Source: a virus (taxonomy: Duplodnaviria; Heunggongvirae; Uroviricota; Caudoviricetes). From it: a stretch of DNA of 11,090 nt. The notes below the pieces were generated by a model, which worked only from the letters and a program-made list of their open reading frames with translations, had not been told where the DNA came from and ran no database searches. Made by a program: the position numbers and the translations under genes. The stretch spans positions 1 to 11,090 of IMG/VR virus record IMGVR_UViG_2737471840_000003, one strand, 5' to 3'. Below, in pieces: positions 1 to 11,090 of the stretch (position 1 is the first letter of the stretch; every line of letters starts with the position of its first letter).

Positions 1-104
1 AATCATTCCCACTCAATTATTTACGAACAACATAACCAATTGACTGGTAACAACTTTCTTAAATATGATTTTTACCGTACCGTTTTATATACCGTCACCG
101 GAAA

Positions 105-593
105 TCAGTGACCCGCTTTCAGGGAGTCGTACTGTCGCTCGCATGTGAGTCCTGCAGACCGATATCGCTCAGCCTCTTCTGCTGTTGCGTTGTAAACTCG
201 GTTGCTTTCTTCAAGCATGTCGGCGAGCACACCGATGACCTTGCTGGCTGGCGTGCCAGTGGGGAAAGATCCGGTATAGTGTTCGGCGAGTCGCTTGGTT
301 TTGTCAAGCTCGGCGCGCAGGCCGTCAGCAGCGGCATTAGCATGCTCAGCGTCAACACGCGCCACATCGATACGGGATTGTGCTTCACGTTCAATTTTCG
401 TCTTCTCCTGATCACGTTGTGACCTGGCCTTATCATCAGCCTGTTTCTGGTCTGCCTGCGCCTGCGCATATCCGGCGTCGTACTGGCGGCTTCCATGAAT
501 ATTCCAGGCAACCATGCCGATGACCACCAGCGCAGCAAGCATTGCCACTATAAGCAACTGTTTCCAGTATGCTTTGACGAATTCCCAGATCAT
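105..593 (-). CDS. Putative Rz-type i-spanin (inner-membrane spanin subunit)
   Basis: 162-aa ORF directly after the endolysin; ATG at 593 overlaps the endolysin stop as ATGA (590..593). It has an N-terminal hydrophobic segment ([18 protein letters not shown]) followed by a charged, coiled-coil-like region rich in Q/A/D/K/R/E, and another ORF with a lipobox is embedded in a second frame. Possible SD AAGG 9 nt upstream. Confidence 0.7.
119..367 (-). CDS. Putative Rz1-type o-spanin (outer-membrane lipoprotein), embedded in Rz in another frame
   Basis: ATG at 367..365 opens [17 protein letters not shown]: a short basic n-region, a hydrophobic core and a lipobox-like LTAC. The mature part begins Cys-APSLTKPSDSPNTIPDLSPLARQP and is proline-rich. 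It lies wholly inside the Rz ORF, as in lambda Rz/Rz1. The start is uncertain (alternative Met codons at 343 and 337) and there is no clear SD. Confidence 0.5.
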   Translation of the reverse strand: MWRVLTLSMLMPLLTACAPSLTKPSDSPNTIPDLSPLARQPARSSVCSPTCLKKATEFTTQQQKRLSDIGLQDSHASDSTTP

Positions 594-1216
594 AACAGCG
601 CCTTACGGGCAGCACCGTAACGCGTCCGCCGGTCGTCGATACCGTTCTGTCCACCGTTAATGATCTGCGTGACGCGAACCAGGTCACCTGTGTACTTCAT
701 GCAGCCTTTGGTGGCGAAGAACCACGCCGCGCTACGAGCCGCGTATTCGTCCTGCGCCAGCAGTTCAGGATTCTCCAGCAAGTCAACTTTCAAGCCGTTT
801 CCGCAGTCACGATAGTTATTCAAACCGGTAATCTGGATAAGTCCGCGACCTCGGTAATTCCAGCCATCGCCGGGGGCATTGTTCCCCATGCGTTTGCTGT
901 ACACCAGATTGGCGATCGCTCGCTGGCGCTCGAGTGGCAATGGTGGCTCACCAGCACGTCGCCCCAGTGCATTAGCCTGCCCCTGAGTGAGACGCCCAGC
1001 CCGAACGAAGTTAGCCAGTCCGCTGACGCTGTAGTTGAAATTCTCCTGCAACCGGGTGAAGCCCACAGACTCATGCCCGACCTGAGCAATAAACATTGCC
1101 AGATCTTCTGGTTTGCTGATACCAAACTCTTTCATCGCAGAAGTTATATGCGAGAACCAGCGTGCGGCCAGCGCCTCGCTAATACCAGCAGCTCGCTGGA
1201 ATTGTTTAATCTCCAT
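590..1216 (-). CDS. Endolysin, glycoside hydrolase family 19 (chitinase-like lysozyme)
   Basis: The translation from ATG at 1216 begins [53 protein letters not shown], which matches the N-terminal pattern I recall for phage GH19 endolysins (QF..A.G.S...A..W...L..AM.EF.I.....A.F.AQ..HES..F), followed by [18 protein letters not shown] lies 6 nt upstream. The track ORF 590..1381 starts at a TTG and its first 55 codons overlap the upstream membrane-protein gene, so I shortened it. Confidence 0.9.
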
Positions 1217-1514
1217 GTTTAGACCTCGATATTTTGAAAATCTGAACAACGTTACCGCGTGTTTTAATAACCGCGGCAAGCATGACAGCGTTGATAATGA
1301 CCTCAGATAAATCCACAGCCATTGGCGTGCGTAACCAGATTGCATAAGCGACACGAACTGGAATGCTGGCCGCAGCAACAATCAGGAAATAAGCAAGCCA
1401 CCCACCCCATCGCCTGTGTTGAGAACCGTTTCTCCGAAATGTGGCAACTCGAACTGCTATACCGGCGCAAATAACCGCATTGGTGGTAAGCAAAAAAAGC
1501 TCATGAGTTACCAT
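1206..1514 (-). CDS. Small membrane protein, putative holin (lysis cassette)
   Basis: 102 aa with an ATG start at 1514 and a strong SD (GGGGAG about 8 nt upstream). It has 2-3 hydrophobic segments ([51 protein letters not shown]) and a charged C-terminus. Its 3' end overlaps the endolysin start by 11 nt. The function is assigned from position and topology only. Confidence 0.65.
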
Positions 1515-1905
1515 CGTCTTTTCTCCCCGGAATTAACTCGCGTGGATTATCGGAACGGTGATAGAGCCAGATCCCAATTCGCACAGCGACGATTGCTGAC
1601 ACAAATGCACCGGCAGAGAAAACAATCCCTTTCTCGAAAGAATCCTGTGTGATTGTAGGGATCAGGCTGGCTATGCCGATAAGAATTGATGCTGCTGGTT
1701 TGTAGAATAGAAGTCCGCAGAGAAAGCTAAGCATCGACAAGAGCACGCGACGACGAATTGGATACTCAACGGCAGAGGTAATAAATATTACCGCGCCGGA
1801 TAAAGCACCAAGAGCGACCTCTGGAGGAACCCCGGCAATGACAGCAGCCAGAGAACCCATGCTAAGCCACTGATTTAAAGACTCACTGGTTAGCTGAGCT
1901 GACAT
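1501..1905 (-). CDS. Membrane protein, putative holin or antiholin partner (lysis cassette)
   Basis: The track ORF 1501..1914 starts at GTG; the first ATG is at 1905 with GGTGG 5 nt upstream, giving 134 aa. It has about four hydrophobic segments and a charged C-terminal tail ([19 protein letters not shown]). A second Met at residue 16 (MGSLAAV..) sits just before the first TM segment. It overlaps the next membrane-protein gene by 14 nt. Confidence 0.55.
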   Translation of the reverse strand: MSAQLTSESLNQWLSMGSLAAVIAGVPPEVALGALSGAVIFITSAVEYPIRRRVLLSMLSFLCGLLFYKPAASILIGIASLIPTITQDSFEKGIVFSAGAFVSAIVAVRIGIWLYHRSDNPRELIPGRKDDGNS

Positions 1906-2001
1906 ATCAGCCACCGTTTACTGTGCATAATGAACCCCCTTAGTTGGTAAGTCCATCATACACAATAAACCATATATGGATAAGTTTACCTCGGATAACT
2001 C

Positions 2002-2030
2002 TTAACTAAATTACCTTATGGGTATATATT
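2002..2030 (+). promoter_or_regulatory. Candidate sigma70-type promoter for the acyltransferase gene
   Basis: TTAACT (2002..2007), a 17-nt spacer, then TATATT (2025..2030), about 50 nt upstream of ATG 2079 in a very AT-rich divergent intergenic region. Hexamer matching only, and AT-rich DNA gives many chance matches. Confidence 0.3.
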
Positions 2031-2078
2031 GTAGTTAATGATTGTGGAACCCATTAAAAATATTGGATAAATATTAAA

Positions 2079-3068
2079 ATGAATGAGAAGAACTATGGTG
2101 TAGTTTTAGCTCGTTTCATCGCCATTGTGCTGGTGGTGTTGCTGCATGTTGCTGCTGGTCCAGTTGGTGCAAAGTCTTCGCCTGATTGGGATTGGGCTAA
2201 CGTATATAGTGCCATATCAAAGCAATGCATTGGTATTTTCATAGTTATAACAGGGTTTCTTTACTACCATAAAAAGAAATTCGAATTCTATGATTACATT
2301 AAAAAGGGGTTTAATGTATTATTTGTCCCTCTTGTATTTTGGTGGGTAATATATGCATCTTATTACATTATATTTAAAGATGCTTCCGTAAGCAGCTTTA
2401 ATATTATGAAGCCATCTGCTGTCCATCTATGGTTTATGTATCATTATATTGCGATTTACATGTTTCTCCCGATGATAATTATTGGATGCCAACGCATGGA
2501 TTTGCGGTATAACGTGATGATATTTTTAATTCTATTCTATGGGAATTCTGTACACCCACAGCTAAAGAATTTCATTCCTAATGCACCATCTATAGATATT
2601 CCATTTGTAAGTACATTAATGTTCTATATTTTTGCCGGATGTATAGTTGCAAGACTTGAAAGCCATATCATAAAATTACGCGCTTTCATTTCGTTAACTG
2701 CTGTTATCCTTGCGGTTATATGTGTCTTTACAAATAAGGCTATATTGATTCATGGGATCAAAGGAGTAAACCTAAGCAACTTTAGCCCCATTGTTGGCAT
2801 GACAGCAATAGCAACAACCTGCGCCTGCATTGGATACGCAGACAGAATAAGCAAAAATGCAAATAAACTTGTAACTCTAATTTCCGAATATGCATTTGGA
2901 ATTTATCTTATACATCCTATTATTATATTTATAACATGGAAAATAGCTCCAGTATCAAATTATGCATGGGGAATACCTGTTGCAACTATATTTTATGTCT
3001 TTGCGTCCATGTTGATAGCTGTGATACTTTCAAAAACTCCTTTGTTAAATAGGGTGATAGCCAAGTAA
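2079..3068 (+). CDS. Acyltransferase family 3 integral membrane protein, probable O-antigen/polysaccharide O-acetyltransferase (lysogenic-conversion moron)
   Basis: 329-aa ORF that is hydrophobic throughout, with about 10 predicted TM segments. The N-terminus (YGVVLARFIAIVLVVLLHVAAGP) carries the conserved Arg and His positions I associate with acyltransferase-3 enzymes. Its length is close to short phage Oac-type acetylases. It lies on the opposite strand to all flanking phage genes, is very AT-rich (about 27-32% GC on hand-counted lines), and ends at a bidirectional terminator. Confidence 0.8.
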   Translation: MNEKNYGVVLARFIAIVLVVLLHVAAGPVGAKSSPDWDWANVYSAISKQCIGIFIVITGFLYYHKKKFEFYDYIKKGFNVLFVPLVFWWVIYASYYIIFKDASVSSFNIMKPSAVHLWFMYHYIAIYMFLPMIIIGCQRMDLRYNVMIFLILFYGNSVHPQLKNFIPNAPSIDIPFVSTLMFYIFAGCIVARLESHIIKLRAFISLTAVILAVICVFTNKAILIHGIKGVNLSNFSPIVGMTAIATTCACIGYADRISKNANKLVTLISEYAFGIYLIHPIIIFITWKIAPVSNYAWGIPVATIFYVFASMLIAVILSKTPLLNRVIAK

Positions 3069-3097
3069 AAAAAAAGCCCCTCTACGGGGCATTTTTT
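3067..3097. terminator. Bidirectional rho-independent terminator between convergent acyltransferase and tailspike genes
   Basis: An A-run (3067..3075), a stem GCCCC (3076..3080) / GGGGC (3086..3090) with loop TCTAC, then a T-run (3092..3097). It reads as hairpin plus U-tract on both strands. It overlaps both stop codons. Confidence 0.65.
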
Positions 3098-5780
3098 AAA
3101 TAGCAGAAATAATGAAACATAACATCTCATCATATCTCAAAGAGTAACCATCACCAGCTTCGCAACCTGAGAATGTCATGATTCCATTTTCATCATATTC
3201 TGGTTCCTTCTTATCCCACTTATCGTAGCAAACCATCCCATAACGCATGGGATCTAGCCCTTCATCCTCGAACGCAGAGATAACATCCTGGACAATTGCA
3301 CCTATATGATATCTTGCGCCATCGCCTTTAATAGCTACCGCATCCTTCATTCTGTACCGACAAATCATTCCCTTAATCTTGATAGCCACGCGCTTTTCGG
3401 CTTCACTTATATCCTCGAAATCTGTCTTCTTTCTTCTGTCAGATGTGTTAATGGAACCAGAATCGGCGTAGACCTGAGTCCATTTAAATGATGCACTCCC
3501 GTTAGACTGCGCGCTAGCGACGCCAGGCAATACCTGATCACTGTAAATCTGAAGAGATTGAGTCCCACCACTTTCACTTGTCACTGTCGGATTTGTGAAG
3601 AAGAAAATAGCATTAGGGTTTAAAGTACCCCCTGAGCCGATAACAAGAGGCGTAGAGGTACCGGTATAGTTTATTTGAGCGATGCCAACTTCTTTTCCTG
3701 TTGACGTTGTAAATGATATTTTGCCTAAACCACCTGAATTATTAATATTAAGCTTTGTTCCTGACAATGAGCGCCTTGTAGCTGTCCATGACCCAATGCT
3801 GCCAACTACGGAATAAATTTCTAGCCCAAGTACAGTACCGGAGGATTCAATAATGAATCCTGCATTGTTCAGATTAGTAACATGGTAAATTTGTCCTGTT
3901 ACGTAGTTAAGACCAGGTATCGTGGTGAGCGAAGGAGCAATGGTTGAAAACCAAGAGAACTCAGTTATGTTTAATGAAGCCATTAAATCAAGAATTTGAG
4001 AAACACTGCTGAAGACTGTATTTAAGACTGGATCGCGCAATTCCCCACGCTCCGAACGCATGAGCCTATTAAATCCATATGTTGGGAGAGGACAATATCC
4101 GGAAGCGGCATCCAGCATGTTAAATCCATCCCGTGAAAACTCCCTCATTATAACAATGCCATTGGGTGTGCTAGGAGATGATTCAGCCATATCACCGATA
4201 AGAATTGAATGGATAGTGCCGTCAGGGTGCTTGAAACATCCCTCTGACTCTGTTCTTGAGACGGTGCAACCGTTTGATGCCAGATAAGTCATCAACTTAT
4301 CTGATTTCACAACAGAGTGGTCTATTAACTCACCAGAGAGTGACACTCTGAGGACTCCGTAATCATGAACAGGGTATTTTGCATCATCAAATGTAGGACG
4401 ATAACTGCCACCTACGCCTATATGAAGGATCCCATTTTTGTATGCTATACCCTGAATTTTCCATACCATGTAATAGTAGGTAGGGGAGAGCTCTGGAGTT
4501 GCAAACCCTGTAAGCATCTGAGAGACATTTATTGTTCCCTGCTTCTCACCTGTATCAAGACGATAAGAATTTATAACAGTCTGTGATTGTGACAATCCTA
4601 CTGGTGTCGCGTTTAATGTGCAGAAGAGTAAATTACCATCAATGCACATATGTGATCCAGCCGACTGAATTGTCGTTATTGTGTGCCCTGAAAGCGTGCT
4701 ACCTGCTGCGGGTAATGTGGTTATGTCATAATAATAAACAAAATCATCCCCAAGACGTCTGTCATACAATCTACGTGATGAACTTCCGCCATATATAGCC
4801 ACAGACTGATTACTACTGTTTGGACTATAAAACCACGTTACTTGCTCTCCTGCCTGGTTATAAACAACTATAACCCTAAGCGCCCCTCCAGCATTAGGCA
4901 CATAGTTAATGAAGAGTAGACCATCATCATCATAGTCAGCACCCTGCGGGTATATGATGCTTCCAGCTCCAATTGCCGCCAGTGCATCAGAATACCCATC
5001 GAACTGAAATGGAAGTTTGTAGATTATTTTTTTCCTGAAATTCTGATCTTTAATGGCACTACCAACAGTACCGTCAGGATACTGGATAGAATCGCTATAA
5101 CCTGATAACCCGGCACCTGTTGGTTTCACTAATTCAACAAGAACATCAGTGGCAGAACCAGATGGCGGCAATGTTACAAAAGGAGACCCACTATTATCGA
5201 AGGCTATTATCTTGTTCGCCCTGACAGCGGCAGATGGAAGTGTGGGTATAGGTTCAGGTGTTCTTAGCGTTCTGTTGAGATTGGTTTCAGAAATACTGTC
5301 TACATAGTTCTTTGTAGCAGCATCTTGCGGCCGAGATGGATCCCTGAGATTTCTGATATAGTTGCCCAGGGCGTCATAATAGTTGGCTACAAAGGATGGT
5401 TTTCTTAACGACAGACTAAACCAACTTCTTACCTGCTGAACAAGCATAGTTAACTTATCAAATGCATCCTCATGCACTTCTGCAAAAAACTTCCCCTGGT
5501 TCCTTAGGTCTGTTTCTTGGGTAACCGGCAACTCTCTTGAAATAGAAATCTTATACCCATTGCCTAAAGCAGTTGATAAAACAACATTCCCCCCCGTGTA
5601 TCCACCAGTACCTGTAATCGAATAATCAGTATCAAGCACAAGAGTGGTTATATTTTCATCCAGATCAACAACCTGCACAACCAGGTCTGACTTCTGAAAA
5701 ATTCGAAAGGTATAAGGAAATGAAGTCGTAACGCCATTACCTGTATATTCGTTATGGTCAACTTCGGTTGAGACCGTCAT
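3096..5780 (-). CDS. Tailspike / tail fibre protein with C-terminal intramolecular chaperone (peptidase S74-like) domain
   Basis: 894-aa ORF with ATG at 5780 and SD GGAG 9 nt upstream. The N-terminal roughly 120 aa (MTVSTEVDHNEYTGNGVTTSFPYTFRIFQKSDLVVQVVD...) resemble the conserved particle-binding module of epsilon15-like tailspikes as I recall it. The C-terminal 115 aa begin SDRRKKTDFEDIS and contain YHIGAIVQDV, which fits the S74 autoproteolytic chaperone pattern. The central part is Ser/Thr/Gly/Asn-rich and looks beta-rich. Confidence 0.9.
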   Translation of the reverse strand: MTVSTEVDHNEYTGNGVTTSFPYTFRIFQKSDLVVQVVDLDENITTLVLDTDYSITGTGGYTGGNVVLSTALGNGYKISISRELPVTQETDLRNQGKFFAEVHEDAFDKLTMLVQQVRSWFSLSLRKPSFVANYYDALGNYIRNLRDPSRPQDAATKNYVDSISETNLNRTLRTPEPIPTLPSAAVRANKIIAFDNSGSPFVTLPPSGSATDVLVELVKPTGAGLSGYSDSIQYPDGTVGSAIKDQNFRKKIIYKLPFQFDGYSDALAAIGAGSIIYPQGADYDDDGLLFINYVPNAGGALRVIVVYNQAGEQVTWFYSPNSSNQSVAIYGGSSSRRLYDRRLGDDFVYYYDITTLPAAGSTLSGHTITTIQSAGSHMCIDGNLLFCTLNATPVGLSQSQTVINSYRLDTGEKQGTINVSQMLTGFATPELSPTYYYMVWKIQGIAYKNGILHIGVGGSYRPTFDDAKYPVHDYGVLRVSLSGELIDHSVVKSDKLMTYLASNGCTVSRTESEGCFKHPDGTIHSILIGDMAESSPSTPNGIVIMREFSRDGFNMLDAASGYCPLPTYGFNRLMRSERGELRDPVLNTVFSSVSQILDLMASLNITEFSWFSTIAPSLTTIPGLNYVTGQIYHVTNLNNAGFIIESSGTVLGLEIYSVVGSIGSWTATRRSLSGTKLNINNSGGLGKISFTTSTGKEVGIAQINYTGTSTPLVIGSGGTLNPNAIFFFTNPTVTSESGGTQSLQIYSDQVLPGVASAQSNGSASFKWTQVYADSGSINTSDRRKKTDFEDISEAEKRVAIKIKGMICRYRMKDAVAIKGDGARYHIGAIVQDVISAFEDEGLDPMRYGMVCYDKWDKKEPEYDENGIMTFSGCEAGDGYSLRYDEMLCFIISAI
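3099..3443 (-). other. Predicted S74-type autocleaving chaperone domain of the tailspike (C-terminal 115 codons)
   Basis: Begins at the Ser codon (3441..3443) of the SDRRKK motif and runs to the last sense codon. By analogy with endosialidase and T5 L-shaped fibre chaperone domains, cleavage is expected at this Ser. Confidence 0.6.
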
Positions 5781-5834
5781 GTTAAATCTCCAGATAGTCG
5801 CAGCACCCGTTGCGCCGCATATCCGGTTATTCTA

Positions 5835-5899
5835 TTACCTGAAAAACCACATATGGATAGATAAACCATAAATACGAACAGATATTACCTTTCAGGTGA
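5835..5899. promoter_or_regulatory. Inverted-repeat element in the divergent intergenic region upstream of the tailspike
   Basis: TTACCTGAAA (5835..5844) and TTTCAGGTGA (5890..5899) are inverted 10-bp arms with one mismatch, 45 bp apart. The right arm also forms a local hairpin ACCT-TTC-AGGT (5887..5897). They sit 55-120 nt upstream of the tailspike ATG. Function unknown. Confidence 0.3.
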
Positions 5900-5975
5900 T
5901 TCGCAAAACGTGCTGGATAGCAAACAAATTATTTGCTACTGTATAAATATACAGTTATTGCATGGAGAAGATAAG

Positions 5976-6233
5976 ATGCAGCAGTATCACTATCCACTGG
6001 AAGACGGATTTACCGAAAGGATTCACACGCCGGGAGGCGTCAGGTCACTGGTGGAGGGATCGCACTTGATGAAATTACTCCGGGATCTCGATAAGGATGG
6101 ATTTAATGTCGATGGCCCACTTGCCGAACTGACTGCACTGATTAACTACGTCACCAGCTCACAGATGTCTATGCAGGATCTGCAAACACATCTCGACTAT
6201 TGTGCCGAACAATTACGAAAACAAATCCGGTAA
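5976..6233 (+). CDS. Hypothetical small protein (85 aa), orphan plus-strand gene between virion genes and tailspike
   Basis: ATG at 5976 with SD GGAG 8 nt upstream. The track ORF 5910..6233 starts at GTG with an implausible N-terminus. A TGTATAAAT element at 5940..5948 is -10-like. GC content matches the phage core (34/60 on line 6001). Stop TAA is at 6231..6233, followed by the hairpin at 6241..6256. I recognise no family for MQQYHYPLEDGFTERIHTPGGVRSLVEG.... Confidence 0.5.
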   Translation: MQQYHYPLEDGFTERIHTPGGVRSLVEGSHLMKLLRDLDKDGFNVDGPLAELTALINYVTSSQMSMQDLQTHLDYCAEQLRKQIR

Positions 6234-6240
6234 ATTTAAG

Positions 6241-6256
6241 GGCCGCGAAAGCGGCC
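6241..6256. terminator. GC-rich hairpin, probable terminator for the convergent small genes and the upstream virion operon
   Basis: GGCCGC-GAAA-GCGGCC is a perfect 6-bp stem with a GNRA-type loop. On the minus strand it is followed by CTTAAATTT, a weak U-tract; there is no T-run on the plus strand. It lies between the stop of the 85-aa plus-strand ORF and the stop of the 46-aa minus-strand ORF. Confidence 0.4.
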
Positions 6257-6276
6257 TGTGACATGTCACACTCAAG

Positions 6277-6417
6277 CTATGACAAACCTATGTACCCTGC
6301 TACACCAGATAATATCAAAACAACTGCTACAGCAAATTCACCGTCTTCAATGATACATTTACGATTCATAACGCCAAGGGCAACAAGCACAAATACAACA
6401 AGAATAAAAGCAATCAT
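6277..6417 (-). CDS. Unannotated 46-aa two-TM membrane peptide (not in the ORF track)
   Basis: ATG at 6417 with SD AAGGA 6 nt upstream; the SD overlaps the TAA stop of the 824-aa gene (minus strand reads CCGCAA-TAA-GGATGAGAA-ATG). My hand translation is MIAFILVVFVLVALGVMNRKCIIEDGEFAVAVVLILSGVAGYIGLS, with stop TAG at 6279..6277. It shows two hydrophobic segments separated by a short charged loop (NRKCIIEDGE). Confidence 0.4.
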   Translation of the reverse strand: MIAFILVVFVLVALGVMNRKCIIEDGEFAVAVVLILSGVAGYIGLS

Positions 6418-6426
6418 TTCTCATCC

Positions 6427-8901
6427 TTATTGCGGAGTGACATCCTGAGGTCGCCACCAGTATGTCTGGTTAAACTCTTTCTTCGAACGTTGCTCCATTT
6501 TACGCAAATAGCCTGGTGAAAAATACTCCTGCATCTGGTTAAAGATCATGTGATCGAGAGCCGCCTTCAAGTACCAGAGATTCGCACCTGGCATCAAACC
6601 TTTCCCCAGCTTCACCAGATCACCACCAGTCTGCTCACTCTTCCCTTCCACAGCATTTAACGGTATGCCCTGAGCAATCTTCACTACGTCATCAACCAGA
6701 CCAGCCACCGGGCCAAGCATCGACGCCAGCGCGCCGCTTCCGTACCTAGTGTGATCTGACAATAAAAAGTCACCGTAAAGGCCAAGACCACCACCTTTCA
6801 ATAGAGCACCAAGCCAGAATTTTGCGGCATCTTCTCCTGTCATCTCGCGAGGATTACGACCAGACGCAAGGTCGTTAAGTTGCTGCGACAAAGCTCCAAG
6901 AATGGTCGTACTGGCAATAAACGTCGCAATATATGCCGCACGCCCACCAGCAGACGGCATACCCATAGCGCGTGACCAGTGACGCATAACCACCGAGATA
7001 GGGAACGATTTAAACAGGAAAACACTTCTCGTTAATTCACCTTTCCATGTTCCACGCTGAATACCAGAACCGGTTATCAGTTGCTCACGTGCTCCCGGTG
7101 TAATAACAGCCATATCAACTTCTTCAGTTACGGCACCGAGCAGTTTACGCATTGCCTCAAATTTCACGCGTTCAGGCTCACCAAGATGTTTAACTGCTGA
7201 ATCAGGGATACGCATAATGCTTTCCGGTGTCAGCATCGTATTATTACCGTTCCCCCAGTCCTCCTGTTGCGCCAACTTCCATACGCTCCAGTCTGTGTCA
7301 GTAATCCCTTTGCTTTTCAGGATACGAAAATCAGAGTCATCGAGGCTACGAAGGCCTGGTGTCCGTGACACTACTTCTCCCAGGCTTCCCATCATGGTTA
7401 CGCCATAGGCGCGCTTGTGCGCATCTGACCATGCTGTAAGCCCACTGGCACGCATTACCGCCGTTGCAGCCCAACGAGACACAGACGGCCCCATATTATC
7501 CATCGCCCAGCGGTTAACGCTGCCAAGTAGAGATTCCATCGCCAGACCAGCGCGGCGCGCCCGCGCAAGCTCAGTACGGTTCGTTGGGTCCATAGCTTCA
7601 AGCTGGTTGCGGAATAACTGGTTCATCGGAAGGTTGGTCACCTTCGCAGACAGATACATGGTTCCAAGATCAGAGAACGATGACAGCAACGCGGATCCGA
7701 GTCTGCTGGCAACCAGCCAGTTGCGGATATTGTCAGACCATCGCGCGATGTGCGGATTCGCTACAGGCTGTGTCTTTCCGGAAATAAAGTTGTACAGATT
7801 CTCTGTGTTGTTCGCCAGCCGCTCGACTTTACCGGTTTTACTCGGGTTAGCTGTTGCCGTTTCTGCCTTAACCTGATCAAGAAGGGAGCGGAAAACATGA
7901 TCGGGGTTTGGACCATATGTTTCCACCAGAGCAATATCTTTACTGATACCTTCCAGGTGACCGACCATGATTTCCCATAGAGAGCGATCGCCATAAAGTT
8001 GTTGATATTGGAGATAGGAATCTGCATCTTTGAAATGTATCTGTCGTGATGCATTACCACGGTTAGCACGTGCGCCGGAAATTCGCATTCCGGTATCAGT
8101 AAGCTTATTCAGCCCACCAGTAGCGATCGTGTTATAAGCCTCTCCAAGAAATGCAGACAACTCGGCATCGTTCATCAGTTGTCCATCGGCTCGGGTATAA
8201 TATTTGCGATCCAGCTTACCTATAACATCGCTAACCCATTTATCTTTTGATACCGCACCAACCTTTTCCATAGAATGATGTTGAGGGATCCCCCAGTTTT
8301 CGAGATAGCCAATGTCCCCACCAGCATCATTAAACCGGCGGCGCAGCAGCTCTGTAACTTCTCTCCACGCCTTAGCACCTTTTCTTGCTTTAGCATTGCC
8401 AGTATTTTGCCCCCGCATTTCATATACCAGGTCACGTACGCCCGCTTCATCTTCAAACAGACCAAAAAAGCGAGGATCAACTGCTTCGAATGCCTCCTGC
8501 AATTGACTCAATGCATAATCACGGGTGGCTTTTGTTCTGGATTCAACAGAGAGGAAATTAGATTTACCGTCTGCATTAAAAGCTATAGTACGGTTAAGAG
8601 CGCCAAGTTTCCCATCAGCCCCTTGATAGCTATTGATAAATTTATCCAATCTCTGACGCGCGGCTATAGTGAGAGCCACACGACGTTTCTTTAATGCCGC
8701 TTCTCGCTGTAATTCTTCAGATGCCAATTGTGCTGCTCGATATAGCCGCTCTGATTCGGAAAGTTGTCGCCACGACATCGGGTCATCACGAGCAATGGAG
8801 CGCATATTTCGATAAATGCGGTCTTCAATGTTTTGTATTTCTCGCGCCGTTAAAGTGCGCTGCGCCGCCTGCTGGACCGCTTGTATACATTCCTGTCTCA
8901 T
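6427..8901 (-). CDS. Large virion protein (824 aa), putative internal core / ejection protein
   Basis: ATG at 8901 with SD GAGG about 11 nt upstream, 5 nt after the stop of the 600-aa gene. It has a helical, charged N-terminus and C-terminal Gly-rich hydrophobic stretches (AAYIATFIASTTILGAL, FWLGALLKGGGLGLYGDFLL, LASMLGPVAGLV). No enzymatic motif recognised. The function is inferred from size, composition and position upstream of the tailspike. Confidence 0.8.
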   Translation of the reverse strand: MRQECIQAVQQAAQRTLTAREIQNIEDRIYRNMRSIARDDPMSWRQLSESERLYRAAQLASEELQREAALKKRRVALTIAARQRLDKFINSYQGADGKLGALNRTIAFNADGKSNFLSVESRTKATRDYALSQLQEAFEAVDPRFFGLFEDEAGVRDLVYEMRGQNTGNAKARKGAKAWREVTELLRRRFNDAGGDIGYLENWGIPQHHSMEKVGAVSKDKWVSDVIGKLDRKYYTRADGQLMNDAELSAFLGEAYNTIATGGLNKLTDTGMRISGARANRGNASRQIHFKDADSYLQYQQLYGDRSLWEIMVGHLEGISKDIALVETYGPNPDHVFRSLLDQVKAETATANPSKTGKVERLANNTENLYNFISGKTQPVANPHIARWSDNIRNWLVASRLGSALLSSFSDLGTMYLSAKVTNLPMNQLFRNQLEAMDPTNRTELARARRAGLAMESLLGSVNRWAMDNMGPSVSRWAATAVMRASGLTAWSDAHKRAYGVTMMGSLGEVVSRTPGLRSLDDSDFRILKSKGITDTDWSVWKLAQQEDWGNGNNTMLTPESIMRIPDSAVKHLGEPERVKFEAMRKLLGAVTEEVDMAVITPGAREQLITGSGIQRGTWKGELTRSVFLFKSFPISVVMRHWSRAMGMPSAGGRAAYIATFIASTTILGALSQQLNDLASGRNPREMTGEDAAKFWLGALLKGGGLGLYGDFLLSDHTRYGSGALASMLGPVAGLVDDVVKIAQGIPLNAVEGKSEQTGGDLVKLGKGLMPGANLWYLKAALDHMIFNQMQEYFSPGYLRKMEQRSKKEFNQTYWWRPQDVTPQ

Positions 8902-8906
8902 TTAAT

Positions 8907-10709
8907 TTAACCTCTCAAGAAACACGCCACAGCGACATCAAACAGGCTGGAATCCTGTATTGCCTGCTCACTTTCCCTGTTCGCTTCATCCAGTACTTCA
9001 CGCGCGCTGCGCGATTGTGGATTACCATCATCATCCAGCACGGTGATTATCATGTCAGGTGATTCAAGCAGCGAGTCTTCAGCTATGCGCAGATCAATAT
9101 CTCCTGCCGGATCTGCCATCATTTTTTGTTCTGTCTGTTGCAATATCTTACCGGGCTCAAAAGGAGCTACTTCGTCTGGCGTCCTGACCTCTGCTGTTTT
9201 ATAGAATGAAACAGCCTGAGCATTAAGTTCACTTTCTGCCTGCTGTCGTCGTGCCAGTTCTGCTCGAGCTTCAAAAAACTGACCGCCAGGCTCATGCGGT
9301 GCCAACGCGTTACGGGAAAATTCCAGGCGCTCTTGTGCCTGCCGGATTCGTTGGTCAATATCGCGAAGTCTGACCTGTTTATCTGATCGAGCACGAGACA
9401 AAGCTTTACCGCTACCGGTTGGCTCTTCTGCAAGAATTTGTGCGCGCTGTTCAGTGAGATTTTCAATAATTCGTTGGCTATTAGCGATTTCAGACTGGTA
9501 AACCTGTCTATCGCCACGCGGCAAAAGCTGCGCGGCCTGTTCTTCAAGCAACCGATTTTCTATAGCGCGCGCCGTTACTCCATCATCTACAGATGACAGA
9601 GCCTCATTAACTGCCTGAGACAGCAGACTCTTGCGCCCAGGAATTTCACTGAAAGATGCAGACTCAACAATGCTGGCAACGTCTACAGGTCTCCCCTGGC
9701 TAACATCAGACATAGCTTTTCGCAGAGCCTGAATGTGAGAATTGCGCGAAAGCACGTTGATCGGCACGCCGGGCGCAATATCAATTTCAGCATGATGAGC
9801 GGCATTCGCCGCCAGTGCAGCATCAACATCAACTGGTGAAAAATTTGGTGCGCTTGTAGACTCGCCGCGAGAGTTCATAAATCTGCCGACACCACCAAAC
9901 GCCACCCCAAGAACAGCATCAATAGCAATTGCCTGTCGATCCAACACATCATACTGGTTAGCCATTTCGCTATAGCCACCATCACGAAGCGTTTTTGCAG
10001 TAAGCCCACGCTGTGCCATACCGAACGCAATATTTGTACCTGCGGCATAGGCAATATCTGGCGTTGCACGTACTGCTGTTGCTGCGGCGCGTCGCACTGA
10101 ACTTTCACCCGTCCGCGCAAGCTGGGCCGCCACACCTTCCGCCAGCGCACCACCAGCACGTAACCCGAGGCTCATAGGGATCAGTGTTCCGGCACCAGCA
10201 GTAATACCCTGCACTAATCCCGCTTCCTGCGCCGTCCTGAAATCAACACCCTGTGCTGTCAGCCGTTCAAACTCAGAAAAACCCTGTAGAGAAGTTACCG
10301 CCGCAGCACCTCCGACCGGACCACCGAGCGTTGTACCGACAACAGCCTGCCCTCCCATATCGAACAACCCATAAAGGACCTGCCCGGCGGTTCCGGTTGT
10401 CGCGGCATCAGGCGTCAGCCGCTTAACCTGCTGCTCTGCTAGTTTTCTCTGCTCAGCAATGTATGAAACTGAAGTGTCATTAAGCGAGGTGTTTTCGTTA
10501 ACAAACTGAGCAATCGGGGATACGATTTTATCCATCCCTGCCCATAGCAACTGATCTGGCTTTGCCACCAGCCCGGAGTACAAACCAGACAATGCCGCTC
10601 CTACAGCATTGTCGAAAAAACCAACATTGCTGTTAAAGCCAGCTGGATTTGATGCTGCTTCGTCAAGCTGCTGATTCTGGCTTACTGGATTAAGGCCAAA
10701 GTAACTCAT
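8907..10709 (-). CDS. Large Gly/Ala-rich virion protein (600 aa), putative internal core / ejection protein
   Basis: ATG at 10709 overlaps the upstream gene's stop as ATGA (10706..10709); GGAG lies about 10 nt upstream. It has long Gly/Ala-rich low-complexity stretches (VVGTTLGGPVGGAAAVTSL, GITAGAGTLIPMSLGLRAGGALAEGVAAQLA) and a charged helical region (EQRAQILAEE...RQAQERLE). No enzymatic motif recognised. Confidence 0.8.
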   Translation of the reverse strand: MSYFGLNPVSQNQQLDEAASNPAGFNSNVGFFDNAVGAALSGLYSGLVAKPDQLLWAGMDKIVSPIAQFVNENTSLNDTSVSYIAEQRKLAEQQVKRLTPDAATTGTAGQVLYGLFDMGGQAVVGTTLGGPVGGAAAVTSLQGFSEFERLTAQGVDFRTAQEAGLVQGITAGAGTLIPMSLGLRAGGALAEGVAAQLARTGESSVRRAAATAVRATPDIAYAAGTNIAFGMAQRGLTAKTLRDGGYSEMANQYDVLDRQAIAIDAVLGVAFGGVGRFMNSRGESTSAPNFSPVDVDAALAANAAHHAEIDIAPGVPINVLSRNSHIQALRKAMSDVSQGRPVDVASIVESASFSEIPGRKSLLSQAVNEALSSVDDGVTARAIENRLLEEQAAQLLPRGDRQVYQSEIANSQRIIENLTEQRAQILAEEPTGSGKALSRARSDKQVRLRDIDQRIRQAQERLEFSRNALAPHEPGGQFFEARAELARRQQAESELNAQAVSFYKTAEVRTPDEVAPFEPGKILQQTEQKMMADPAGDIDLRIAEDSLLESPDMIITVLDDDGNPQSRSAREVLDEANRESEQAIQDSSLFDVAVACFLRG

Positions 10710-11090
10710 TGCGGAATATCTCCGGAGAATCTCTGACGTTTCTGTGTCAGATTAAGAACAACGGGAGAACCATCATCTTTCAGCAGATAACCAGTACCAA
10801 GTTTCACCAGGTACTGACTATCGCCGTAACTTTGCAAACCATACTGACCAGGCGGTGTTTTTATCCCGGAGCCGACAACTTGTTCATTCCAAGCCTGATT
10901 AACCTGCTTATCGAATTGCTCTGCAGACATTCCCCACGGCAAAAGGACATTCCCCATTCCGTTATAGTCATGCACGCCACCTGTAGCTACGTTAACAGCC
11001 TGTTTCCAGACATCATTGTCAATTTCGCCTGATACCACGCCTTTTTTCGCCATCACGCCAGCGTAATAGTCCTTTGCGATCTCGTATGCC
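10706..11090 (-). CDS. Phage late-operon protein, probably 5'-truncated at the window edge
   Basis: The track ORF 10706..11056 starts at a GTG. The same frame stays open with no stop up to the window edge (..AYEIAKDYYAG-V-MAKKGVVSGEID..), so the gene may begin beyond 11090. An internal ATG at 11053 has only a poorly spaced AGGA 19 nt upstream. Product unknown. Confidence 0.55.
   Translation of the reverse strand, partial: AYEIAKDYYAGVMAKKGVVSGEIDNDVWKQAVNVATGGVHDYNGMGNVLLPWGMSAEQFDKQVNQAWNEQVVGSGIKTPPGQYGLQSYGDSQYLVKLGTGYLLKDDGSPVVLNLTQKRQRFSGDIPQ

Follow-up and report, generated by a model that had tools for sequence, protein, structure and literature searches.

The 11,090-nucleotide stretch of viral DNA analysed here (IMG/VR record IMGVR_UViG_2737471840_000003, positions 1 to 11,090; hereafter the window) represents the late region of a Uetakevirus (phiV10/epsilon15-like) prophage of Escherichia coli, in which the virion genes lie on the minus strand. 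Directly behind an 824-residue homologue of epsilon15 gp17 lies a 46-codon open reading frame (ORF), whose product, MIAFILVVFVLVALGVMNRKCIIEDGEFAVAVVLILSGVAGYIGLS, is the subject of this report. The ORF runs on the minus strand from an ATG at 6417 to a TAG at 6279..6277. A consensus Shine-Dalgarno (SD) sequence overlaps the TAA of the 824-residue ORF (6429..6427) and is followed by a 6-nucleotide spacer (TGAGAA), and the ATG begins 9 nucleotides past that stop. This interval of the window is 100% identical to chromosomal prophages in E. coli JML285, E47, Z142-6 and C6.

A conserved gene at the end of the late operon

The minus-strand ORF is a genuine conserved gene. Its SD (TAAGG[AG]T) and ATG were found in all 58 related loci, 47 of which keep the 46 codons intact, and ORF, start and SD are retained over ~80%-identical DNA in Escherichia, Salmonella, Citrobacter and Hafnia. 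The variable sites in 27 distinct DNA versions of the ORF are distributed 20/11/32 over the three codon positions, and the ratio of nonsynonymous to synonymous divergence (dN/dS) is 0.22, with proportions of nonsynonymous and synonymous differences (pN and pS) of 0.062 and 0.245. Amino-acid changes in the family largely swap one hydrophobic residue for another. The constraint is nevertheless looser than in the neighbouring gene, since the last 90 codons of the 824-residue gene have a dN/dS of 0.03, one-seventh of the value for the peptide gene. A collection of 5.8 billion proteins yielded 48 homologous clusters at 74–97% identity from the same four genera, and a profile search run exhaustively over 1.84 billion representatives returned eight matches, made up of family members of 32–48 residues and two proteins of more than 1,000 residues that matched weakly; a scan of genome contigs gave a single locus. 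The distant members, at 44–57% identity, hold the same place at the operon end after the ejection-protein genes, and retain R/K20, I23, E27-F28 and VAGYxG. Some prophage copies are altered: two loci carry a single-base frameshift, four a C-terminal frameshift yielding ...GVARVHRFVIT, and three a lost stop that extends the peptide to 90 residues (L054, L059, L049-L052 and L045-L047 in all). These copies fit a dispensable gene, or assembly errors.

The opposite view, that the minus-strand ORF is not the gene and that either a plus-strand ORF at 6200..6448 is real or the interval is a non-coding 3' untranslated region and terminator, strikes us as next to inconceivable. The plus-strand frame is open in many relatives and has a similarly low dN/dS of 0.19; however, this value is uninformative, since the two ORFs have their wobble positions in common. 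The plus-strand frame contains in-frame stops in the phiV10 group and in locus L015, in which the minus-strand ORF is intact. Furthermore, it would have to start at a TTG within the convergent gene, in a region that is not conserved, and to cross the terminator hairpin. The minus-strand ORF, on the other hand, has a conserved SD and ATG, a constant length, the conservative pattern of substitutions described above and a confident structural model. We therefore rejected the plus-strand ORF on its in-frame stops in relatives, dN/dS being unable to discriminate.

The peptide is predicted to be a 46-residue two-helix hairpin without a soluble domain, with two transmembrane helices. Residues 1–17 and 28–46 are hydrophobic (mean Kyte-Doolittle values of 3.18 and 2.17) and are separated by a charged loop, NRKCIIEDGE, with two K/R and three D/E residues. 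AlphaFold2, run with 22 homologues, gave helices at residues 2–19 and 25–45 with a mean predicted local distance difference test score (pLDDT) of 92. The loop (NRK-[GC]-II-[ED]-DGEF in the family) is conserved no less than the helices; in the alignment that includes distant members K20 is invariant and R19 nearly so. Helix 2 presents a face of small residues, in which all close members have S37, G38, A40 and G41, while down to 44% identity V39, A40, Y42 and G44 are invariant and G41 nearly invariant. Charged residues end at E27, and the C-terminus reads ...AGYIGLS.

An earlier reading made from the window's sequence alone (the sequence-only reading) had described much of this. Its account of the 46-codon ORF, with a consensus SD overlapping the 824-residue stop at 6-nucleotide spacing, is correct in every detail, and it was right that the automatic ORF track had missed the ORF, through length alone. 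The two hydrophobic helices with a short charged loop are borne out by hydropathy and by the model, the coupling to the end of the virion or ejection-protein operon by the SD overlap and the downstream terminator, and the check that it proposed, conservation and dN/dS, came out in favour of the gene. The competing plus-strand ORF, which it had named as a possible refutation, fails on the stops in the phiV10 group and L015.

It had also called the gene unannotated, and this does not hold. The phiV10 record lists it as PhiV10p21 (AAZ95943.1), 'putative integral membrane protein; two predicted transmembrane helices', and places a terminator behind it; the gene is annotated in SPN1S (SPN1S_0020), PAS61, other phages and RefSeq E. 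coli genomes, including WP_040092269.1 at the identical locus of strain JML285, whose encoding DNA is identical to that of the window; and the peptide matches the PHROG family phrog_7892 with an E-value of 2.5e-31, residues 1–46 aligning to profile positions 1–46 of 46. PhiV10p21, SPN1S_0020 and phrog_7892 share with the window gene 85–100% identity, a length of 46 residues, and the same position, SD and terminator, and we found no difference of substance between the PhiV10p21 family and the window peptide. By profile, position and the two transmembrane segments, the peptide is a member of this family. GenBank, RefSeq and PHROGs already contain the ORF, and the gene call itself therefore adds nothing new.

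No record of the peptide gives it a function, the descriptions being 'putative integral membrane protein' or 'hypothetical protein', and we found no statement on it in the literature on phiV10, epsilon15, gp18, Uetakevirus and superinfection exclusion. A tblastn search of 50,697 phage records (E ≤ 10) gave matches confined to Uetakevirus records. Pfam offered just a sub-threshold match to DUF5367 (E 0.056) and PADLOC just a chance match to CARF_TM (E 0.074), and the sole significant Foldseek match of the AlphaFold model among viral structures was the family's own member.

The genes upstream place the peptide in a DNA-delivery operon. The 824-residue protein aligns with epsilon15 gp17 over its full length (27.7% identity, E 1e-108), and Hardies et al. 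2016 assigned gp17 to the T7 IVP-D (gp16) family, as a candidate part of a transient trans-envelope DNA conduit (PMC4819975). The next gene upstream, of 600 residues, is gp16-like. With these gp17-like (T7 gp16-type) and gp16-like genes ahead of it, the peptide gene is the last cistron of the ejection-protein operon. A consensus scan upstream of the peptide gene found no sigma-70-like promoter; from the sequence, it appears to be a late-operon cistron without a detectable promoter of its own, and ribosomes could start on the SD that overlaps the gp17-like stop. Median pS is 0.42 in the gp17-like gene and 0.245, in a small sample, in its last 60 nucleotides (6427..6486), which would fit constraint from the downstream translation-initiation region. 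Raw third-position entropy along the gp17-like gene showed a dip at first, which was mostly gone after normalisation for codon degeneracy, with low values left in these last 60 nucleotides only. Downstream of the peptide gene lie a perfect palindrome and a GC-rich terminator hairpin. The T-rich tail of this hairpin is weak, and the late-operon terminator also serves the convergent plus-strand gene; the epsilon15 record has a rho-independent terminator annotated at the corresponding site. An Rfam search of 5800..6700 gave just a sub-threshold Histone3 stem-loop match, on the terminator hairpin.

The gene is compositionally foreign to its operon. Its GC content is 36.9%, and 25.5% at third codon positions, compared to 49.5% and 45.5% for the 824-residue neighbour, and is near that of the acquired acetyltransferase gene of the window (35.1%).

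An exchangeable cassette behind the gp17-like gene

To define the slot that the peptide gene occupies, we took 80 viral contigs in which the C-terminal 300 residues of the gp17-like protein are 96–100% identical to those of the window, and read the content after the stop codon; loci L083 and L143 were assigned by the distance from stop codon to palindrome only. The 46-residue peptide (type A) is present at 30 of the 80 loci, five of them with a frameshifted or altered C-terminus. At 41 loci (type B) the slot holds an unrelated, GTG-initiated 57-residue hairpin peptide (MFLIILSVIISGGLLFIDRYKYFLNPQTQAICWFIFVVQGIVLVASLIEGRPLIFTG) and then a 98-residue protein with several transmembrane segments (phrog_3075). 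Eight loci (type C) have a 41-residue hydrophobic peptide and then a lipoprotein (phrog_3716), as in phage ZX5, and at one locus the lipoprotein stands alone, without a hairpin peptide. Examples of the cassettes are the window (6274..6423), L065 (2407..2887), L076 and L062, and L142 (2413..2793). Among 5,426 complete E. coli genomes, 324 have the gp17-like 3' end, and 59 of these 324 carry type A. Every cassette protein with a match in PHROGs falls in a family of unassigned function, and the 57- and 41-residue peptides match no family there. BLAST and hidden Markov model (HMM) comparisons of the window peptide with epsilon15 gp22 and gp18, Tyrion gp19, the type B and C peptides and P22 SieA gave nothing significant.

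The edges of the exchanged unit are sharp. In all cassette types the first gene begins 5–7 nucleotides behind its SD, and this SD either overlaps the gp17-like stop or lies against it. An alignment of the window to a type B locus runs at 98.6% identity to 6424, is then lost, and resumes at 6273 at 95%, so that the swapped unit is exactly the coding cassette, from the SD to the palindrome-terminator module. This module (GTGACATGTCACA[GA]-GGCCGC-N4-GCGGCC-T-rich) stands behind types A, B and C, and also in epsilon15, Tyrion and TL-2011b. The GTGACATGTCAC palindrome precedes the GC hairpin at the late-operon end in every Uetakevirus examined, whichever the cassette (L004 7518..7557; L005, L062, L063, L065, L076), and the TGA stop of the last gene falls within it in epsilon15 and in types B and C. 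The palindrome may form a terminator hairpin in tandem, or a protein may bind to it.

The peptide gene is thus not a core gene of the virion operon; it is one of the alleles that this exchangeable cargo slot can hold. Because slot content swaps among near-identical relatives, and because the gene is foreign in composition, the slot holds a dispensable envelope-cargo cassette. Two of the traits described for phage morons (PMC3594210) are found here, deviant GC content and patchy presence or replacement in close relatives; the third, a promoter and terminator of its own, is not, as no promoter was found and the terminator is that of the operon, common to all cassettes. The cassette relies instead on the SD at the stop codon of the upstream gene. 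The novelty lies in describing the slot as a polymorphic cargo site with defined bounds. The sequence-only reading had held that the gene would be refuted if it were missing from relatives that keep the surrounding DNA. Most relatives with both flanks do carry another cassette; the gene is nonetheless real, and the replacement marks it as accessory rather than spurious.

Two arrangements at other loci bear on the make-up of the slot. In type C the 41-residue ORF, which the ZX5 record leaves without annotation, contains a single hydrophobic helix, and a second stretch that resembles a helix (FQLESLLRAAAWFGFVVFGIVLFGRIIK) lies in another frame just 3' of it (L062 5844..6006, which is ZX5, and eight IMG/VR loci, for example L076). 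Sequencing error is an unlikely source, since the arrangement recurs in 8/8 loci; the second stretch may reflect a split gene, a frameshifted gene or coincidence. Locus L145 (4668..5138) has a 1129-residue gp17 homologue, 27% identical over the last 200 residues, and its operon ends with a 92-residue Tyrion-gp19-like protein (with a shared LWLKRKKLE tail) and then a 45-residue member of the type A family, with its own SD after a 54-nucleotide spacer. As both stand in tandem in L145, peptide types can co-occur, and the Tyrion gp19-like protein and the peptide family are not simply alleles of one gene.

The exchange of cassettes also bears on whether the peptide helps the ejection apparatus or the assembly of the virion, and so serves its own phage's DNA delivery, either within the virion or by shielding or chaperoning hydrophobic parts of the ejection proteins inside the producer cell. 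The operon context speaks for such a helper: the gene is the last cistron behind the ejection-protein genes, its SD overlaps the gp17-like stop and no independent promoter was found, and small proteins with two transmembrane segments also follow gp17 homologues that are only 28% identical (epsilon15) and the 1129-residue homologue of L145. However, phages with gp17-like C-termini that are ≥96% identical differ in the content of the slot, which can also be a lipoprotein alone; frameshifted copies exist and the composition is foreign; the peptide gene has the higher dN/dS given above; and the 824-residue protein has no strongly hydrophobic transmembrane segment that would need shielding. We regard a helper role as unlikely.

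Neighbouring genes and possible functions

On one side of the peptide gene is the last ejection-protein gene; on the other lies the tailspike gene (Table 1), with the convergent 85-residue gene in the gap. A canonical LexA box (TACTGTATAAATATACAGTT) lies at 5937..5956, 20 nucleotides upstream of that gene, whose product weakly matches the C-terminus of an anti-repressor family, and the same box stands upstream of gp19 in epsilon15 (L004 7841..7860). This suggests a small SOS-controlled gene, possibly for an anti-repressor. A 107-residue call for it from a GTG start is probably too long, because RefSeq starts at the ATG at 5976.

Table 1 Coordinates of the peptide gene, its signals and its neighbours in the window
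Feature	Position	Strand	Basis and remarks
46-codon coding sequence with TAG stop, hairpin membrane peptide (predicted)	6277..6417	minus	ORF and translation, family match
Helix 1, residues 2–19 (predicted)	6361..6414	minus	AlphaFold, hydropathy; hydrophobic from the N-terminus, ends at conserved R19-K20
Tight charged turn, residues 20–24, non-helical (predicted)	6346..6360	minus	AlphaFold; inside loop motif NRK-[GC]-II-[ED]-DGEF
Helix 2, residues 25–45 (predicted)	6283..6345	minus	AlphaFold; small-residue face S37-G38-x-A40-G41-Y42-x-G44
Shine-Dalgarno sequence AAGGA	6424..6428	minus	Overlaps TAA of the 824-residue gene; left edge of the exchangeable cassette
824-residue gene, epsilon15 gp17 homologue	6427..8901	minus	phrog_684 (virion structural protein); epsilon15 gp17 match
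Perfect palindrome TGTGACATGTCACA	6257..6270	.	Single match, 0.06 expected by chance
GC-rich hairpin GGCCGC-TTTC-GCGGCC, then CTTAAATTTA	6241..6256	minus	Terminator scan, fold; annotated in phiV10
85-residue gene, epsilon15 gp19-like, phrog_450	5976..6233	plus	Convergent with the peptide gene
Tailspike gene	3096..5780	minus	Beyond the 85-residue gene
O-acetyltransferase gene, Acyl_transf_3	2079..3068	plus	Pfam
Lysis genes (two holin-like genes 1206..1914, endolysin, Rz)	~105..1914		~4.4 kb from the peptide gene

A small membrane hairpin expressed late might set the timing of lysis or perturb the membrane, as a holin, antiholin or pinholin-like protein that modulates the holins of the distant lysis cassette. 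Expression with the late operon, the two-transmembrane hairpin and the glycine and small-residue face of helix 2, as in pore-forming helices, are consistent with this, and the 98-residue protein of type B has a weak, sub-threshold match to the holin family Phage_holin_5_2 (E 0.027). However, the peptide lacks a hydrophilic charged C-terminal tail, ending in ...GYIGLS, and neither Pfam nor PHROGs gives it a holin match; its gene is remote from a lysis cassette that already has two holin-like genes, an endolysin and Rz; and a lipoprotein can take its place. A role in lysis is, in our judgement, quite unlikely.

The sequence-only reading had raised, as speculation, an Iap-like peptide that inhibits the host O-antigen polymerase Wzy, and had noted that this would fit the neighbouring acetylase and tailspike. 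Such a peptide would act on Wzy by binding it within the membrane, and would alter or shorten the O-antigen alongside the acetyltransferase. The tailspike and O-acetyltransferase genes are within ~3–4 kb, and epsilon15 gp22, of 66 residues and two transmembrane segments, is likewise a small peptide. This proposal now appears very improbable. Wzy proteins are serotype-specific, and peptides that are 85–100% identical occur with 29 unrelated tailspike receptor-binding clusters (42 loci) and in four host genera, while the conversion modules (oac, Gtr, MBOAT) vary independently. Among the main ORFs of the window Pfam found the Acyl_transf_3 acyltransferase and no gene of the Wzy/O-antigen ligase family. 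In epsilon15, gp22 adjoins the phage polymerase ~5 kb from the slot, which is filled by gp18. The peptide does not align to gp22 (profile score -3.4 bits), and has no match outside Uetakevirus among the phage records searched.

We tentatively favour a different overall account, which we hold with somewhat less than even confidence: that the gene is a genuine last cistron of the late ejection operon, encoding an inner-membrane hairpin that is carried as exchangeable cargo and has an exclusion-type role. The peptide would insert in the inner membrane; the simplest arrangement leaves the zwitterionic turn of 5–10 residues (RK...EDGE, five charges) in the cytoplasm and the two uncharged ends on the outer side. 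It would act through the packing of helices within the membrane, on the invariant face of small residues in helix 2. There it may interfere with DNA delivery by superinfecting phages, rather than with O-antigen synthesis. Superinfection exclusion was also among the roles listed in the sequence-only reading, and it is the one that we still find the most plausible. The exclusion function, taken by itself, is our best single guess and still only a possible one, suggested by analogy because the cargo of the slot includes a lipoprotein, the slot adjoins DNA-delivery genes, and precedents exist in P22 SieA, HK97 gp15 and T4 Imm. Lipoproteins include known exclusion proteins, such as Cor (PMC3594210; PMC11436027).

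Several observations weigh against this account. The peptide gene is co-directional with the late operon and coupled to it, with no promoter detected, so that the peptide may be made only late in lytic growth, whereas sieA and HK97 gene 15 are expressed from the prophage with promoters of their own (PMC10883804; PMC3594210), and sieA of P22 is on the opposite strand. Across the 80 loci the gp17-like protein shows no co-variation with cassette type, and there is thus no sign of a specific interaction between peptide and ejection protein. PHROGs, Pfam, PADLOC and Foldseek gave no functionally annotated homologue. The proposed topology follows from the charge distribution alone, and both helices are short (~18 and ~21 residues).

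A bolder version of the exclusion hypothesis, which we consider doubtful, is that the slot is a dedicated 'exclusion cassette' locus bounded by recombination, in which interchangeable mini-proteins would each act against conduit formation in the inner membrane by its own set of superinfecting podophages, with the palindrome and terminator as a common exchange or regulatory boundary. Expression of such a cassette could be late, blocking injection by progeny or competitors into infected cells, or low in lysogens, and the 46-residue hairpin would be the smallest known of its kind.

The slot is widespread, as ~6% of complete E. coli genomes (the 324 noted above) carry this prophage type, and the envelope-protein cargos that it takes, all of them uncharacterised, are of at least four kinds, under a common SD and terminator. 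If these are exclusion determinants, they would shape which podophages, including therapeutic and typing phages that target O-antigens, infect the lysogens, and the peptide would offer a compact system for how a 46-residue hairpin interferes with a T7-gp16-type DNA conduit. Should the cargos prove to be no more than loosely constrained membrane peptides, the finding would be an ordinary one.

Comparison with known systems

Two groups of small phage membrane proteins resemble the peptide in size and hydrophobicity and differ from it in other respects. Epsilon15 gp22 and Iap of Pseudomonas phage D3 are small hydrophobic peptides too, gp22 being annotated with two transmembrane segments. However, gp22, the alpha-polymerase inhibitor, adjoins an O-antigen polymerase gene, has a charged C-terminal tail and shows no similarity to the peptide, which occurs irrespective of serotype and tailspike type. 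Class II holins and pinholins are likewise small and late-expressed, with two transmembrane segments, but have a charged C-terminal domain and an adjacent endolysin gene, neither of which the peptide has, and the peptide matches no such family.

Among exclusion proteins, HK97 gp15 and T4 Imm are small inner-membrane proteins that stop phage DNA entry without touching the receptor (PMC3594210; PMC11436027). HK97 gene 15 is a cassette inserted in the tail operon, with deviant GC content and its own promoter and terminator; it is expressed from the prophage and is related to YebO (PMC3594210). Neither protein has sequence similarity to the peptide in the tblastn search of all phage records, and for the peptide gene no promoter was found. 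[quoted passage not shown] It occurs in three sequence types that are <30% identical and indistinguishable in specificity, and blocks the gp20/gp16 conduit at the inner membrane (PMC10883804). SieA has 162–164 residues, three to four transmembrane segments and a cytoplasmic FxRYPxEAxxFNK motif (PMC10883804), none of which the peptide has; it is transcribed from its own promoter, while no sigma-70-like site was found upstream of the peptide gene; and there is no significant sequence similarity between them; the position of the two genes, however, is alike.

Epsilon15 gp18 (64 residues), gp19 of Enterobacter phage Tyrion (103 residues) and the 92-residue look-alike of the latter in L145 are counterparts of the peptide in position, being small proteins with two transmembrane segments encoded directly after a gp17 homologue. 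Although gp18 and gp19 have no detectable sequence similarity to the peptide, both are followed by the same GTGACATGTCAC palindrome and terminator as in the window.

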